Shown: positions 8,800 through 16,299 of the stretch, piece after piece
Numbering within the stretch: position 1 is the stretch's first letter
Layout of the letters: each line of letters opens with the position of its first letter
Source: a virus
Taxonomy: Duplodnaviria; Heunggongvirae; Uroviricota; Caudoviricetes
Strand: one strand, 5' to 3'
Length of the DNA stretch: 31,920 nt
IMG/VR virus record: IMGVR_UViG_2534681762_000007
Made by a program: the position numbers and the translations under genes
The notes under the pieces: model-generated
The model's database searches: none
Told to the model about the DNA's origin: nothing
Seen by the model: the letters and a program-made list of their open reading frames with translations, nothing else

Positions 8800-9090
8800 T
8801 TAGTGATTCAGGCCGTTACCGCGTCCGTCGAGAAAAACTTCCACGAGCAAATCACGGGTATAAGTGCGCTCGATGCCGCGATGCAGATAAAGCCGTCCGC
8901 GTAAATTAGCTGATGCAGTCCAGGTACCATCTTTGTGTTTGACCAGCATTCCTGGCATGACCGCGCCGCGATTAACGGTCTGCGTTCCGTAATGTTGATG
9001 AACCATAAAAACTCCTGCCCGTAAGCTGGGCTGCTGAACATATAAAGACTTCTGCGCGTATTCAGGCGGTGGATGGCCGCCGGTTGTCAT
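8800..9090 (-). CDS. Hypothetical 96-aa protein occupying the kil/cIII position upstream of gam
   Basis: [45 protein letters not shown]... with GAGG about 10 nt upstream of ATG at 9090; the 136-aa track ORF is the same frame from a TTG with no RBS. Confidence 0.5.
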
Positions 9091-9283
9091 AACTAAGCCG
9101 CCTCGTTGAAGCGACTGAGGTATGAAGTGTTGAGTTGATTTCAGCTGGTCACACCGACGTTCACGCGTCCGCTTCACCCCTCGCACTTCCCGTAGCCTGC
9201 TGAAATTCAAGCTGCGGATCTAAGCGGTCATCGCAACGGTGAATCAGGTGGTTGCCGTATCGTTGTGTTGTTGCGACATGGTG

Positions 9284-9327
9284 ATAATAGCTATTGCTAT
9301 TGGTGATATCAATACTTATAGCTATTG
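9284..9327 (-). promoter_or_regulatory. PL-like sigma70 promoter with flanking operator palindromes (OL)
   Basis: On minus strand: -35 TTGATA (9312..9307), 17-bp spacer, -10 TATTAT (9289..9284); palindrome AATAGCTATT (9286..9295) overlaps the -10, ATAGCTAT (9318..9325) lies just upstream of the -35; 9-mer TTGCTATTG (9294..9302) recurs in OR. Confidence 0.5.
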
Positions 9328-9453
9328 ATTGATGTGTTTTGATATTAACTGTTTGATAGCAAAAAGAATTAATTTTGTGACTTGCATCGCATAGCGATAA
9401 CTGAAGGGAGGTTGTGGTGGTTTTTCGAACGGTTTGTGTGATGAGGGGAGGGG

Positions 9454-9483
9454 ACAAAAGAAAACCCGGCACGGTGGCCGGGT
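9454..9483 (-). terminator. Intrinsic terminator ending the repressor-side transcript (tImm-like)
   Basis: Stem CCCGGC / GCCGGG (9465..9470 and 9477..9482) with minus-strand T-tract TTTTCTTTT; begins 5 nt after the stop of the 313-aa ORF. Confidence 0.6.
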
Positions 9484-9487
9484 ATCT

Positions 9488-10429
9488 TTATTCGAATGGA
9501 AGATCTATTTGCCTTTGAGGATTCAACTGTTTTTTTACATGCTCAATTTCGAATATGGTTTTTATGGCATCTCCGATCATATATTGAGTTACTTTTAAAT
9601 CTACAAGTAACATATCACCTTTAGAAAAATTTAAGGTGTTGTTATCAATATCGCTGATGAATTTCTGGTCTTTTATTTCAGCCAAAAAGCTACTGGCACC
9701 ATCAGAAAACCGCCACCGGCTTCCTTCATTGAAGGAAATATTTTTAATTTGAAGGGCTTTCTCTACTGTGTACTCTGAAATTATTGATTCTGCTGGTAGA
9801 TTGACTTTGAAATAATGTGCTTCTTGCTTGTTGATCGTCATGAATGTCAAACCATCATCGACAGTAGAGGCAAAGCTGTCAATGCCTTCCTGCTCCAATG
9901 GCTTACTTATAACTTCTTGTAATGAAGAGCGAAGTTTAATATTTTTATAAAGTTCAATAACGTTACTGTCGTAGATCTCGCTTTCGTCATCAACAAAGAC
10001 TTCGATGTTGCTATCAGGCAAATTGTGTAATTTTTTTATTTTCCTTGGGCCTATCCATTTTATCAGTTGAATTAGGCCTTTGCATATTTTTTCTTTAGAA
10101 CCAGGACAGAGTCCAATAAAAGCAATCAAATTCGCAGCGGCTGTTGCTGAATCGCCGGATAAAAAATCAACAGCCTGTTTGAACCAAGATGTAGATGAGG
10201 CAACCAGATCTATTCCAAATGAGCCAGCTTTAAATGATGCATTGACTTTTACAGAAACAACAGTCTTGTTTCCGTAGAGAGTTTTACCGGCTTCCTCTAA
10301 TGCATCTGATAGTGATAGAAGGGCAGGAGCAAGGTCTCGCACGTTCATTTCATGCGTTTCCAGTGCCGGACCGTCGTATACTATCCTGAACTTCATATCA
10401 TTGGTTTCCGAATTGTTGCCCGCATCCAT
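9488..10429 (-). CDS. Orphan 313-aa protein of unknown function in the rexAB slot (between cI and PL)
   Basis: Long AT-rich ORF; ATG at 10429 preceded by AGGTGA with 8-nt spacer (the track ORF starts 12 nt upstream at a GTG); no motif assignable by eye; terminator immediately downstream. Confidence 0.75.
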   Translation of the reverse strand: MDAGNNSETNDMKFRIVYDGPALETHEMNVRDLAPALLSLSDALEEAGKTLYGNKTVVSVKVNASFKAGSFGIDLVASSTSWFKQAVDFLSGDSATAAANLIAFIGLCPGSKEKICKGLIQLIKWIGPRKIKKLHNLPDSNIEVFVDDESEIYDSNVIELYKNIKLRSSLQEVISKPLEQEGIDSFASTVDDGLTFMTINKQEAHYFKVNLPAESIISEYTVEKALQIKNISFNEGSRWRFSDGASSFLAEIKDQKFISDIDNNTLNFSKGDMLLVDLKVTQYMIGDAIKTIFEIEHVKKQLNPQRQIDLPFE

Positions 10430-10502
10430 TATGGCATTCACCTGATCACATATACAGTTAATTTACGATATTGTCTTAAATCTTAAAACTTCTATTGTAT
10501 GG

Positions 10503-11195
10503 CTACCCATGCTTCCTATACGTCTGCGGCATGCTCCCAATAACCTTACCGAAGATGAACACCCGGTTCATCTCGTCTTTCTCGATCGGGTCCCACGGCG
10601 AGTAGCTCTTGTTATCAGAGATAACCAGCAGCTTATCCTTCATCATTTGCAGACGCTTTACATGGGCTGTGTCGTCGTACAGAAACGCATAGATACCATC
10701 ACCGTCGAAAGATTTAACAGTGATATCAACGAACAGAAGATCACCTGGTTCGATCGTTCCTGACATGCTGTCACCACGTACGTTAATGATGCGGATATTT
10801 TCTGCCTTCCTGCCATCGAACATGTGACGAGCATCGTCAAACGAGTACTCAACCGAGCGTAGAACTTCTACAAACTCACGGTTGATGACTCCCGGCCCGG
10901 CACTCACTTCTATATCAAGAACGTCAATCTTGAAGTATTTGGGATGGTTGGCAGTAGGCTTCCCTAATTGTTGACCGTCATTTCTCATCGGGCCTATGCC
11001 TGATGAGAGCCACTCTGTTCGAACACCCAATGCATTAGCTATTTCAACAATTTTTGTTGAGCCGCGCGCGTTGCCGCTTGTCAGTCTCCAGATTGTGGGT
11101 TGAGCTACGCCAGACGCCTTTGCAAGAGCGCCTTGAGACATTCCAGATTGTTCCATCGCTAGGTTTAAGCGATCAGCAAGAGTTTCTTTTTTCAT
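10503..11195 (-). CDS. CI-type prophage repressor (N-terminal HTH, C-terminal LexA/S24 autopeptidase domain)
   Basis: HTH region LSQGALAKASGVAQPTIWRL; Ala-Gly cleavage site in VSAGPGV; GDSM serine motif and downstream KRL lysine; divergent from a cro-like gene. Start taken at ATG 11195 (MKKETL); in-frame TTG at 11231 is the alternative. Confidence 0.85.
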   Translation of the reverse strand: MKKETLADRLNLAMEQSGMSQGALAKASGVAQPTIWRLTSGNARGSTKIVEIANALGVRTEWLSSGIGPMRNDGQQLGKPTANHPKYFKIDVLDIEVSAGPGVINREFVEVLRSVEYSFDDARHMFDGRKAENIRIINVRGDSMSGTIEPGDLLFVDITVKSFDGDGIYAFLYDDTAHVKRLQMMKDKLLVISDNKSYSPWDPIEKDEMNRVFIFGKVIGSMPQTYRKHG

Positions 11196-11305
11196 AAGTT
11201 TTAATTTATACGCTTGCGTATTGATGGTCAAAACACGTTTTGCTATTGTTATGATTAATACGCATTGCTATTATTTATTCGTTGCAATACCAATAGGAAT
11301 TGATA
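11196..11305. promoter_or_regulatory. OR region between divergent repressor and cro-like genes (PR/PRM and operators)
   Basis: Plus strand -35 TTGATG (11221..11226), 17-bp spacer, -10 TATTGT (11244..11249) facing the cro-like gene; inverted repeat ATACGC-TT-GCGTAT (11208..11221); TTGCTATTG at 11240..11248 is identical to a 9-mer in the PL region. Confidence 0.55.
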
Positions 11306-11533
11306 ATGACAAATCAAACCATTCAACTCGCAATCAGTATTACAGGTAGTCAAAAACGACTGGCAGATCTATGCGGTGTAGCCCAACCCACTGTTTGGCG
11401 TTGGCTACACGGTGGCGGAATTGATGCCCGCTATGTAATGAAAATTGTCTCAGCCACTGGTGGAAAGATTAAACCAGCAGATATTCGTCCCGACCTCGCA
11501 CCATTGTTTAACGCGAGTAACTCTGCCGCCTAA
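11306..11533 (+). CDS. Cro-like HTH regulator (YdaS/Cro family)
   Basis: 75-aa ORF MTNQTIQLAISITGSQKRLADLCGVAQPTVWRWLHGG...; AGGA Shine-Dalgarno; divergent from the repressor gene. Confidence 0.75.
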   Translation: MTNQTIQLAISITGSQKRLADLCGVAQPTVWRWLHGGGIDARYVMKIVSATGGKIKPADIRPDLAPLFNASNSAA

Positions 11534-11557: not shown

Positions 11558-12103
11558 ATGACTATGCAACCACTTACATACCAACAGACTAGCGGATTTA
11601 GCCCGATTGCGGTGATAAATCGTTCTCAAACAAAACAAGCTCCAGGCCACGAAAAAATCCGTGATGCCGTCCGTGCCTGGTCGGCTGCAGATAATCAGGA
11701 TGTTGTTGCCGCACTCATTGTGAATGAGTATCGGGAGCAGGGCGGCGGCACCATCGATTTCCCTGATGATGTCAGCCGTGCACGCCAGAAGCTGTTCCGC
11801 TTCCTCGATAACAAATTCGATTCTGAAAAATACCGAAATAACGTGCGTGAACTGACCCCGGCAATTCTGGCGGTACTACCGCTGGAATATCGCGGCCACC
11901 TGGTTGAGCAGGATAGCTTCATGGCTCGGCTGGCTGAAATGGAAAAGGAACTCAGTGAGGCAAAACAGGCTGTCATTCTCAACGCACCACGCCACCAGAA
12001 ACTGAAGGAGATGAGTGAAGGCATTGTGTCGATGTTTCGTGTGGACCCGGATCTGGCTGGTCCACTGATGGCGATGGTTACCACCATGTTGGGGGCAATA
12101 TGA
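11558..12103 (+). CDS. YdaT-family protein in the CII position
   Basis: 181-aa ORF with NEYREQGGG and LTPAILAVLPLEYR motifs that I recall from Rac prophage YdaT; immediately follows the cro-like gene. Confidence 0.6.
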   Translation: MTMQPLTYQQTSGFSPIAVINRSQTKQAPGHEKIRDAVRAWSAADNQDVVAALIVNEYREQGGGTIDFPDDVSRARQKLFRFLDNKFDSEKYRNNVRELTPAILAVLPLEYRGHLVEQDSFMARLAEMEKELSEAKQAVILNAPRHQKLKEMSEGIVSMFRVDPDLAGPLMAMVTTMLGAI

Positions 12104-14183: not shown

Positions 14184-14516
14184 ATGAACCCTTATATTTA
14201 TCTTGGTGGTGCAATACTTGCAGAGGTCATTGGTACAACCTTAATGAAGTTTTCAGAAGGTTTTACACGGTTATGGCCATCTGTTGGTACAATTATTTGT
14301 TATTGTGCATCATTCTGGTTATTAGCTCAGACGCTGGCTTATATTCCTACAGGGATTGCTTATGCTATCTGGTCAGGAGTCGGTATTGTCCTGATTAGCT
14401 TACTGTCATGGGGACTTTTCGGCCAACGGCTGGACCTGCCAGCCATTATAGGCATGATGTTGATTTGTGCCGGTGTGTTGGTTATTAATTTATTGTCACG
14501 AAGCACACCACATTAA
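14184..14516 (+). CDS. emrE: Small multidrug resistance efflux transporter EmrE
   Basis: 110-aa product MNPYIYLGGAILAEVIGTTLMKFSEGFTRLWPSVGTIICYCASFWLLAQTLAYIPTGIAYAIWSGVGIVLISLLSWG... matches E. coli EmrE with 4 TM helices; the track ORF starts 54 nt upstream. Confidence 0.95.
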   Translation: MNPYIYLGGAILAEVIGTTLMKFSEGFTRLWPSVGTIICYCASFWLLAQTLAYIPTGIAYAIWSGVGIVLISLLSWGLFGQRLDLPAIIGMMLICAGVLVINLLSRSTPH

Positions 14517-14772: not shown

Positions 14773-16299
14773 ATGAAAAAAGCCATAGCATATATGCGAT
14801 TTTCATCACCAGGTCAGATGTCTGGCGACTCATTAAACCGACAGAGAAGACTTATTGCTGAATGGTTAAAGGTAAATAGTGATTATTATCTTGATACCAT
14901 AACATATGAAGATTTAGGATTAAGTGCATTCAAAGGAAAGCATGCACAATCAGGAGCTTTTTCGGAATTTTTAGATGCTATAGAGCATGGTTATATATTG
15001 CCAGGAACTACATTGTTAGTTGAAAGTCTGGACAGACTTTCAAGAGAAAAAGTCGGTGAAGCGATTGAACGTCTGAAATTGATTTTGAATCACGGTATTG
15101 ATGTTATAACTCTTTGCGACAATACAGTCTATAATATTGACTCTTTGAATGAGCCATATTCATTAATAAAAGCCATACTTATAGCACAAAGGGCAAATGA
15201 AGAAAGCGAGATAAAGTCAAGTCGGGTTAAATTATCATGGAAGAAAAAACGGCAGGATGCACTGGAATCAGGTACGATTATGACGGCGTCTTGTCCGAGA
15301 TGGCTCTCCTTAGATGACAAAAGAACGGCTTTTGTTCCAGACCCCGACAGGGTGAAAACTATTGAGCTAATTTTTAAACTCAGGATGGAAAGGCGCTCAT
15401 TGAATGCAATAGCCAAGTATTTAAATGATCATGCTGTAAAGAATTTCTCAGGAAAAGAAAGTGCATGGGGACCTTCTGTAATTGAAAAATTATTAGCGAA
15501 TAAAGCTCTGATAGGTATATGCGTACCTTCATATCGTGCAAGAGGTAAAGGAATAAGTGAAATCGCTGGCTATTATCCCAGAGTCATATCAGATGATTTG
15601 TTTTACGCTGTACAGGAAATTCGGTTGGCACCTTTTGGTATTAGCAATAGTAGCAAAAATCCTATGTTGATAAATCTACTTCGAACAGTTATGAAGTGCG
15701 AGGCTTGTGGTAATACCATGATTGTTCATGCGGTATCTGGAAGTTTGCATGGCTATTATGTTTGTCCGATGAGAAGACTGCATCGATGTGACAGGCCATC
15801 AATAAAGAGAGATTTGGTTGATTATAATATCATTAATGAGTTGCTTTTTAATTGTAGTAAAATCCAACCAGTTGAAAACAAGAAAGATGCTAATGAAACT
15901 TTAGAGTTGAAAATTATTGAGCTCCAGATGAAAATTAATAATTTAATTGCTGCATTATCTGTTGCGCCTGAAGTTACCGCTATAGCAGAAAAAATCAGAG
16001 TATTAGATAAGGAATTACGAAGGGCTTCTGTATCATTAAAAACTTTGAAGAGTAAAGCGGTGAGTTCACTTGGTGATTTTCATGCTATTGACTTAACCAG
16101 TAAAAATGGGCGAGAGCTATGTCGTACACTTGCCTATAAAACATTCGAAAAAATCATAATCAATACAGATAATAAAACCTGTGATATCTATTTTATGAAT
16201 GGCATTGTTTTTAAACACTATCCTTTAATGAAAACAATATCCGCCCAGCAGGCGATAAGTACTCTCAAATATATGGTTGATGGTGAGGTTTATTTTTGA
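14773..16299 (+). CDS. ybcK: Large serine recombinase (YbcK-type, DLP12-like)
   Basis: 508-aa AT-rich ORF MKKAIAYMRFSSPGQMSGDSLNRQRRLIAEWL... with resolvase-type N-terminal catalytic Ser region and Cys-rich recombinase domain (CEACGNTM...CPMRRLHRC); matches my memory of K-12 YbcK. Confidence 0.9.
   Translation: MKKAIAYMRFSSPGQMSGDSLNRQRRLIAEWLKVNSDYYLDTITYEDLGLSAFKGKHAQSGAFSEFLDAIEHGYILPGTTLLVESLDRLSREKVGEAIERLKLILNHGIDVITLCDNTVYNIDSLNEPYSLIKAILIAQRANEESEIKSSRVKLSWKKKRQDALESGTIMTASCPRWLSLDDKRTAFVPDPDRVKTIELIFKLRMERRSLNAIAKYLNDHAVKNFSGKESAWGPSVIEKLLANKALIGICVPSYRARGKGISEIAGYYPRVISDDLFYAVQEIRLAPFGISNSSKNPMLINLLRTVMKCEACGNTMIVHAVSGSLHGYYVCPMRRLHRCDRPSIKRDLVDYNIINELLFNCSKIQPVENKKDANETLELKIIELQMKINNLIAALSVAPEVTAIAEKIRVLDKELRRASVSLKTLKSKAVSSLGDFHAIDLTSKNGRELCRTLAYKTFEKIIINTDNKTCDIYFMNGIVFKHYPLMKTISAQQAISTLKYMVDGEVYF

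Follow-up and report, generated by a model that had tools for sequence, protein, structure and literature searches.

The immunity region of the virus genome analyzed here is built around a 16-bp pseudo-palindrome, AATAS-N6-STATT, which is its predicted operator and of which a repeated 9-mer noticed earlier forms one half. Our analysis covered a window of 31,920 nucleotides, i.e., the whole stretch of DNA, in which five copies of the unit were found in two control regions, namely at the leftward promoter PL and in the interval (OR) between the divergent genes for a cI repressor and a Cro-like protein. The copies keep a constant phasing, overlap the best promoters of the region, are conserved among related prophages and change together with the recognition helix of the repressor. 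Taken as a set, they are very likely the operators of a lambda-type bistable switch which, judged by sequence, belongs to the immunity type of phages ST104 and BTP1.

Genetic Context of the Control Regions

The features of the region are collected in Table 1. The cI and cro-like genes are divergent, with a gap of 110 bp between them. The product of cI is predicted to be a self-cleaving repressor with an HTH and an S24 (LexA-like) domain; it matches the Pfam families Peptidase_S24 (1.3e-18) and HTH_3 (1.8e-6), and the self-cleavage motifs are present in its sequence in the form of Ala-Gly (VSAGPG), Ser (GDSM) and Lys (VKRL). The nearest solved structure is that of the 434 repressor (phmmer E = 1.5e-5 to 1e-4 against 1per, 2or1 and 1r69, residues 7–68), and the one nearest to the Cro-like protein is Xfaso 1 Cro (3bd1). 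Between the HTH of cI and Cro 19 of 48 residues are common (E = 6e-9), and the stretch from helix 2 through the turn to helix 3 reads SQ..LA...GVAQPT[IV]WR. The two proteins fall into different Pfam families (HTH_3 and YdaS_toxin) despite this common helix-2/helix-3 sequence, and a similar pairing was observed in phage HK639 (QPAIQK in cI, QPAVHK in Cro).

The neighboring genes are those of a standard lambdoid early region. A YqaJ-type exonuclease, RecT and Gam are encoded to the left, while O and P follow to the right after a YdaT-like gene (11558–12103, plus strand; PF06254, E = 7.5e-30), which stands in the position of cII and is not lambda-CII-like. BTP1 and a Klebsiella phage with the same cI, Cro and operators carry a short CII-type gene in that position, indicating that the establishment module is exchanged independently of the immunity module. 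Just downstream of O, P and ren-like genes, Pfam families point to a small multidrug resistance (EmrE-like) gene (14184–14516, plus strand) and a large serine recombinase gene (14773–16299, plus strand), an arrangement that resembles the one in prophage DLP12 of E. coli K-12.

The cI operon is separated from PL by a 317-aa gene and its terminator (9464..10441). No Pfam match was found for this gene, and PDC-S42, the family to which it was assigned, is a PADLOC candidate defense family. The same cargo slot (rexAB/bstA) was found to hold genes for an ASCH protein and a hypothetical protein in phage 4A7, bstA in BTP1 and a ParA-like gene in the Klebsiella phage, all of them relatives with the same cI. 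Between the terminator of the cI operon and PL there is also a short palindrome, ATCGC-ATA-GCGAT (9386–9398), which is kept in 4A7 and in the hetero-immune phage IdasGreatGrand, where it lies in the common flank of the alignment.

Table 1. Genes, promoters and predicted operator sites of the immunity region, with positions in the window.
Feature	Sequence or product	Position	Strand	Location	Basis
PL cassette, immunity-specific	~95 bp	9277..9371		replaced whole in IdasGreatGrand, flanks nearly identical	alignment
PL	-35 TTGATA (9312-9307), 17-bp spacer, -10 TATTAT (9289-9284)	9284..9312	-		promoter scan, 10/12
OL1, predicted	AATAGCTATTGCTATT	9286..9301		over PL spacer and 4 bp of -10	pattern match; score 26.6, rank 2 in the window
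OL2, predicted	AATACTTATAGCTATT	9311..9326		25 bp from OL1; its first two bases form the end of the PL -35	pattern match; score 26.0
OL3 position, degenerate	GATGTGTTTTGATATT	9331..9346			in-register comparison of 24 PL regions; outside the top window scores
PL-distal conserved block	GATAGCAAAAAGAATT (GATAGCnAAAgGAATTTAtttt)	9355..9370		upstream of PL	22/30 loci, including hetero-immune HK639
Intrinsic terminator		9483-9464	-	after the 317-aa gene	terminator scan
Accessory gene	317 aa	9488..10441	-	downstream of cI, co-oriented	PADLOC PDC-S42, 3.4e-86
cI repressor, predicted	230 aa; N-terminal HTH (helix 3 QPTIWRL) and S24 autopeptidase domain	10503..11195	-		
PRM	-35 TTGACC (11231-11226), 17 bp, -10 TAAATT (11208-11203)	11203..11231	-		promoter scan
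OR3, predicted	TATACGCTTGCGTATT	11207..11222		overlaps PRM spacer and -10	pattern match; score 18.6; conserved in 26/27 aligned OR regions
OR2, predicted	AACACGTTTTGCTATT	11232..11247			pattern match; score 10.1; OR alignment
PR	-35 TTGTTA (11246-11251), 17 bp, extended -10 TGcTATTAT (-10 11269-11274)	11246..11274	+		promoter scan
OR1, predicted	AATACGCATTGCTATT	11257..11272		over PR spacer and 4 bp of -10	pattern match; OR alignment; score 29.0, best in the window
Candidate fourth right site	AATACCAATAGGAATT	11286..11301		over the cro ribosome-binding site	score 15.6, rank 5 in the window
Cro-like protein	75 aa; helix 3 QPTVWRW	11306..11533	+		Pfam YdaS_toxin 9.6e-15, P22_Cro 4e-3

The Predicted 16-bp Operator Unit

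In full, the consensus of the predicted operator reads AATA-S-C-n-A|T-n-G-S-TATT. A degenerate pattern, WAYAS-N6-STATT ([A/T]A[T/C]A[C/G]-N6-[C/G]TATT), has five matches in the 31.9 kb, all of them at PL or OR, compared to 0.7 expected, and the center-to-center distance is 25 bp throughout within OL and OR. A repeat finder likewise reported units of 17–19 nt that recur every 25 bp in both control regions. Since the degenerate pattern was drawn post hoc from the window's own five sites, three non-circular tests were run.

All inverted pairs of 4- and 5-mers were enumerated at spacings of 0–12, amounting to 16,640 tests. The dyad AATA-N8-TATT came first, with three of its three copies in the control regions (p = 3.4e-7, ~0.006 after correction), and no other repeated dyad was found in the control regions by this enumeration. 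A weight matrix was also trained on 35 distinct PL-side sites only, all from other genera. Its six best positions in the window, with scores from 29.0 at 11257 to 10.1 at 11232 (Table 1), all lie in the two control regions, and the best background score was 9.8; OR2 is the weakest of the five sites. In addition, the weight matrix shows a central A|T step, 90% conserved, which the pattern leaves unconstrained.

Relatives were collected by a search with the N-terminal 71 residues of cI alone, which yielded 24 loci; 23 of these are prophages, and they represent about 20 genera of enterobacteria. In these loci (~160 kb) the window-derived pattern had 63 matches at OR, directly upstream of cI, at fixed offsets and with 25/25 phasing, and 50 on the PL side, clustered downstream of cI; there were none elsewhere in the ~160 kb. 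A motif search across related prophages had been named in the original prediction as a test by which it might be refuted, and it showed the motif to be retained across homologous immunity regions.

An alignment of 27 OR sequences shows conserved 16-mers and PRM hexamers, but hypervariability in the 9-bp spacer between OR2 and OR1 and in the stretch past the PR -10; the conservation at OR partly reflects the common ancestry of the whole module. Comparison of both OR and PL showed half-sites that stay fixed while spacers and site centers diverge. Phage 4A7 and its relatives encode a cI identical to that of the window, and the cI of Salmonella phage BTP1 is 85% identical overall with an identical HTH. 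In the 4A7 group, BTP1 and the related Klebsiella phage ST11-VIM1phi8.2, the three OR sites recur and differ in their central bases only (in BTP1, OR2 is identical to that of the window, and OR1 and OR3 differ only centrally), and their PL sites have other centers and unchanged phasing. Of 5,426 complete E. coli genomes, 723 (13%) contain the OR region.

Co-variation of the Sites With the Recognition Helix

Our comparison of loci indicates that the sites co-vary with the recognition helix of the repressor. The residues QPTIWR are present in helix 3 of cI in 23 of 23 loci. In IdasGreatGrand the C-terminal domain of cI is almost identical and the helix reads QAAIQKI; the motif is absent, and OR and PL carry repeats of their own. 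The PL region of this phage differs from that of the window only in a swapped cassette of ~95 bp (9277–9371). The cI of HK639 has the helix QPAIQKM, and its locus lacks the motif and carries ATAAC-N4-GTTAT sites at the same positions. With different helices and operators, HK639 and IdasGreatGrand are presumably hetero-immune. The helix sequences of the two proteins also suggest joint evolution of the recognition helices of cI and Cro, or their exchange within immunity modules.

The same comparison bears on the identity of the binding protein. As both cI and Cro carry the same helix-3 motif, sequence cannot tell cI sites from Cro sites, and a match to the IHF consensus is present near PL; either Cro alone or a host factor (IHF, Fis) might then occupy the sites, with cI binding elsewhere. 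We consider this highly improbable. The loci were found through the N-terminal domain of cI alone, and 23 of 23 carry the motif. Locus L026, which combines the cI helix with an unrelated Cro, has lost the regular three-site array but retains sites at PL and over the PR -10. A host protein, moreover, would not co-vary with a phage HTH, and the control regions offer no second repeated dyad. Recognition by cI remains the preferred reading. Given the close match between the two helices 3 (QPTVWRW in Cro, QPTIWRL in cI), Cro is very probably a second ligand of these sites, in keeping with what is known for the 434 repressor and its Cro.

The Repeated 9-mer and the Short Palindromes

The strings from which the original prediction started are present exactly as it placed them: a string check found the 9-mer TTGCTATTG at 9294–9302 and 11240–11248, and the palindromes AATAGCTATT at 9286–9295 and ATAGCTAT at 9318–9325 on the PL side. 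A further copy of ATAGCTAT lies at 9288–9295. The exact 9-mer alone is of marginal significance, with two copies compared to 0.31 expected and the same number reached in 5 of 100 dinucleotide shuffles. Copies with up to one mismatch cluster strongly: 16 occur in the 31.9-kb window, and seven of these fall in the ~100 bp which the two control regions comprise. For the hexamer GCTATT, no enrichment was seen across the window (15 copies compared to 16 expected). The 9-mer is made up of a central TTG, the outer pentamer CTATT and one flanking G, and a third copy with one mismatch, TTGCTATTA, is found at 11265–11273, where the -10 of PR falls (TATTAT, 11269–11274).

That AATAGCTATT and ATAGCTAT, both short perfect palindromes, are the functional units together with the 9-mer is, in our view, even less probable than binding by Cro or a host factor only. 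It is true that the strings exist, that the 9-mer occurs at both control regions and that ATAG-N0-CTAT (ATAGCTAT) occurs twice in the window, at PL only; this dyad ranked second in the enumeration (uncorrected p = 4.8e-5), and its significance is lost when the 16,640 tests are corrected for. However, the palindromes, which had been described at both the PL-like and the OR regions, are at OR in no locus, and at PL AATAGCTATT was found in only 3 and ATAGCTAT in only 5 of the 24 relatives. Only 3 of 24 relatives have the exact 9-mer at both regions, and its second position varies freely at OR2, where the OR alignment contains TTG, TAG, TCG and TGG. The 16-mer explains all the copies and adds OR3, OR1 and OL2. 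On the grounds of conservation and of the dyad enumeration, neither the 9-mer nor the short palindromes were retained as candidates for the binding unit, and the sequences indicate that AATAGCTATT and ATAGCTAT are incidental, probably by-products of a half-site standing beside a particular site center.

The proposal that the 9-mer is an operator half-site for an S24/HTH repressor was thus sound as regards the half-site, whereas the complete unit appears to be the 16-bp dyad. The halves within OL1 and OR2 had been recognized, but OR3, OR1 and OL2 had been overlooked as units, and so had the 25-bp phasing. The least probable explanation is that the sites are look-alikes of promoter elements, or chance occurrences in AT-rich intergenic DNA, without a dedicated binding protein: the exact 9-mer is indeed marginal relative to chance and the site ends do serve as promoter bases (TT before the G of the -35, TATT before the AT of the -10), but OR3 and the left halves of every site are no promoter elements and yet are conserved, the 25-bp phasing is exact over ~20 genera, and a change of helix is accompanied by replacement of the motif with another repeat while the promoters stay.

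Predicted Promoters and Operators of the Right Control Region

A promoter scan of positions 9150–11400 gave four candidates, three of which are on the 16-bp sites; the hexamers reported are consensus matches only. PL and PR have an identical geometry, in which O2 is followed after 9 bp by O1, the -35 starts with the final two T's of O2 and the -10 with the final four bases of O1 (TATT). At OR, OR2 adjoins the -35 of PRM, its final two bases start the -35 of PR, and it holds the second 9-mer (11240–11248). The PR sequence TTGCTATTAT is invariant or almost so in the OR alignment, and both GGTCAA (PRM -35) and AATTTA (PRM -10) are conserved.

These positions differ from those first assigned. The rightward -10 had been read as TATTGT (11244–11249), but the best -10 of PR is at 11269–11274, and BTP1 reads TATTGC at the former position. 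Combined with a -35 of TTGATG, TATTGT agrees with the consensus at 8 of 12 positions; this candidate for PR was not listed by the promoter scan, is not conserved and was rejected. On the left, the 9-mer had been thought to cover the -10 and the palindromes to flank the promoter. In fact, the 9-mer sits in the PL spacer, and the palindromes overlap the -10 and spacer and adjoin the -35 on its upstream side. The repeats therefore do not back the earlier promoter assignments, and the sites favor a PR -10 at 11269–11274 and a PL -10 at 9284–9289.

The ATG of cI (A at 11195) is only 7 nt past the -10 of PRM, so that the predicted start of PRM is at most a few bases away, and it is not preceded by a Shine-Dalgarno sequence. 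Because of this arrangement, a leaderless or near-leaderless cI mRNA appears likely.

The element AATAC-N6-GAATT over the cro ribosome-binding site may be regarded as a tentative candidate for a true operator, the fourth on the right side and confined to this immunity group, although we think it rather unlikely. Its AATAC is kept in most relatives with variable flanks, and only in the present immunity group; the element at 11286–11301 is absent from HK639 and IdasGreatGrand. The AGGAA part can be explained by a Shine-Dalgarno function as well. If the element were genuine, cI or Cro would bind ~29 bp downstream of OR1, in the PR leader, adding a roadblock or translational layer of a kind lacking in lambda, and the fourth site along with the five-site consensus would provide the ST104/BTP1 immunity type with its first operator map.

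The Left Control Region

OL1 contains the first 9-mer (9294–9302) and the palindrome AATAGCTATT. In a gapless alignment the OL1 and OL2 positions are occupied in 24 of 24 related PL regions, with varying centers, and the hexamers of PL are likewise present in all 24 relatives (-35 TTGATA or TTGCTA, -10 TATTAT or TATTGT). A third strong site exists in many relatives, such as AATAGCAATTGCTATT at the OL3 position of Enterobacter-type relatives. In the window, the degenerate sequence at this position is probably weak or non-functional.

Upstream of PL, the conserved block at 9355–9370 was considered as a fourth left operator and rejected, as the hetero-immune HK639 retains it. Being kept across genera and in HK639, the block appears to be independent of immunity specificity. 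An IHF-consensus match (WATCAANNNNTTR) at 9346–9358 on the minus strand overlaps it; 16 of 24 loci have this match in the equivalent position and eight lack it. The PL-distal block may hold an IHF site.

Downstream of PL, a leader of ~280 nt (9007–9283, minus strand) precedes a Kil-like 68-aa ORF (8800–9006; annotated as Kil in 4A7), and no N gene was found after PL. A put-like antiterminator RNA of the HK022/HK639 type was considered for this N-less leader and was rejected on similarity, fold and Rfam: the leader showed no significant similarity to the putL-like RNA of HK639, its fold had z = 0.17, and no Rfam match was obtained.

Proposed Mechanism of the Switch

For binding, occupancy order, cooperativity and PRM activation we infer a scheme from the lambda and 434 paradigms. 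A cI dimer would bind each 16-bp pseudo-palindrome. In the lysogen, cI dimers would fill O1 and O2, probably cooperatively, and PR and PL would be occluded. The cI bound at OR2 would be positioned to stimulate PRM, giving rise to a leaderless or near-leaderless cI mRNA that would run on into the accessory gene, and OR3 would provide negative autoregulation at high cI levels. RecA-stimulated self-cleavage of cI at the Ala-Gly bond, via the Ser and Lys of the motifs described above, would lift repression and lead to induction, after which Cro would shut off PRM. In BTP1 lysogens, cI and the gene downstream of it are transcribed from a single TSS (PMC7067206); expression from the prophage is high for cI and low for cro and N.

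Significance and Comparison With Known Systems

The ST104 repressor type is a recognized type of P22-like Salmonella phages (PMC10307801), and BTP1 shares it (PMC5322425). This immunity type is widespread, being found in E. coli, about 20 enterobacterial genera, the Salmonella phages ST104, SE1, ST160 and BTP1, and Klebsiella phages. In the literature searched, we found no report of an operator sequence for the ST104/BTP1 type, although one may still exist, and a search with the motif strings returned unrelated primer-type matches only. The operators of this common immunity type appear to be unmapped so far.

Our analysis yields a precise, testable operator consensus together with a map of promoters and operators. 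With such a map, sequence alone could serve for the prediction of homo- and hetero-immunity, switch regions could be annotated, and orthogonal repressor/operator parts could be built. It also allows one to ask why BTP1, which is noted for unusually high spontaneous induction, induces so often. The feature is real and well supported, but it is an ordinary lambda-style switch, and the lambda paradigm gains no new concept from it.

The operators of phage 434 are 14 bp long, ACAA-N6-TTGT, with conserved outer bases around a variable center of 6 bp, and its repressor and Cro have helix-3 residues in common, as do those of the window. The 434 repressor is the nearest solved homologue of the DNA-binding domain of the present cI, and both systems have conserved outer bases and a 6-bp center. 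However, the sites of the window do not match ACAA-N6-TTGT, pointing to a similar geometry with another specificity: the outer bases are AATAS instead of ACAA, and helix 3 reads QPTIWRL instead of QQSIEQL. In addition, the Cro of the window is in the YdaS/Xfaso-1-Cro family and is not a close copy of the repressor domain.

As in lambda, cI and cro are divergent around three phased pseudo-palindromic sites, with a second cluster at PL ~2 kb off. Both switches have O1 over the -10 and spacer of the lytic promoter, O2 between two -35s and O3 over the -10 of PRM. A self-cleaving S24 repressor, a cI start without Shine-Dalgarno sequence beside PRM and an accessory gene after cI (rexAB in lambda) are also common to both. 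The sites of lambda, however, are of the 17-bp TATCACCGCCAGTGGTA type, whereas those of the window are 16 bp, AATAS-N6-STATT, with a uniform spacing of 25 bp. Unlike lambda, the window has only two good OL sites, has no N after PL and carries a YdaT-like gene in the cII position.

HK639 and IdasGreatGrand share with the window the module architecture, related cI C-terminal domains, the Cro family and the PL-distal block, and they differ from it in recognition helices and operators (ATAAC-N4-GTTAT in HK639). In the phages of the ST104 type (ST104, SE1, ST160, BTP1), the N-terminal domain of cI is 89% identical to that of the window, the HTH is identical, and the motif and phasing of OR1–OR3 and OL are the same. 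The window differs from these phages in that it is without N, in that PDC-S42 rather than bstA follows cI, and in being a lambda-like E. coli prophage with RecT, Gam, O and P.
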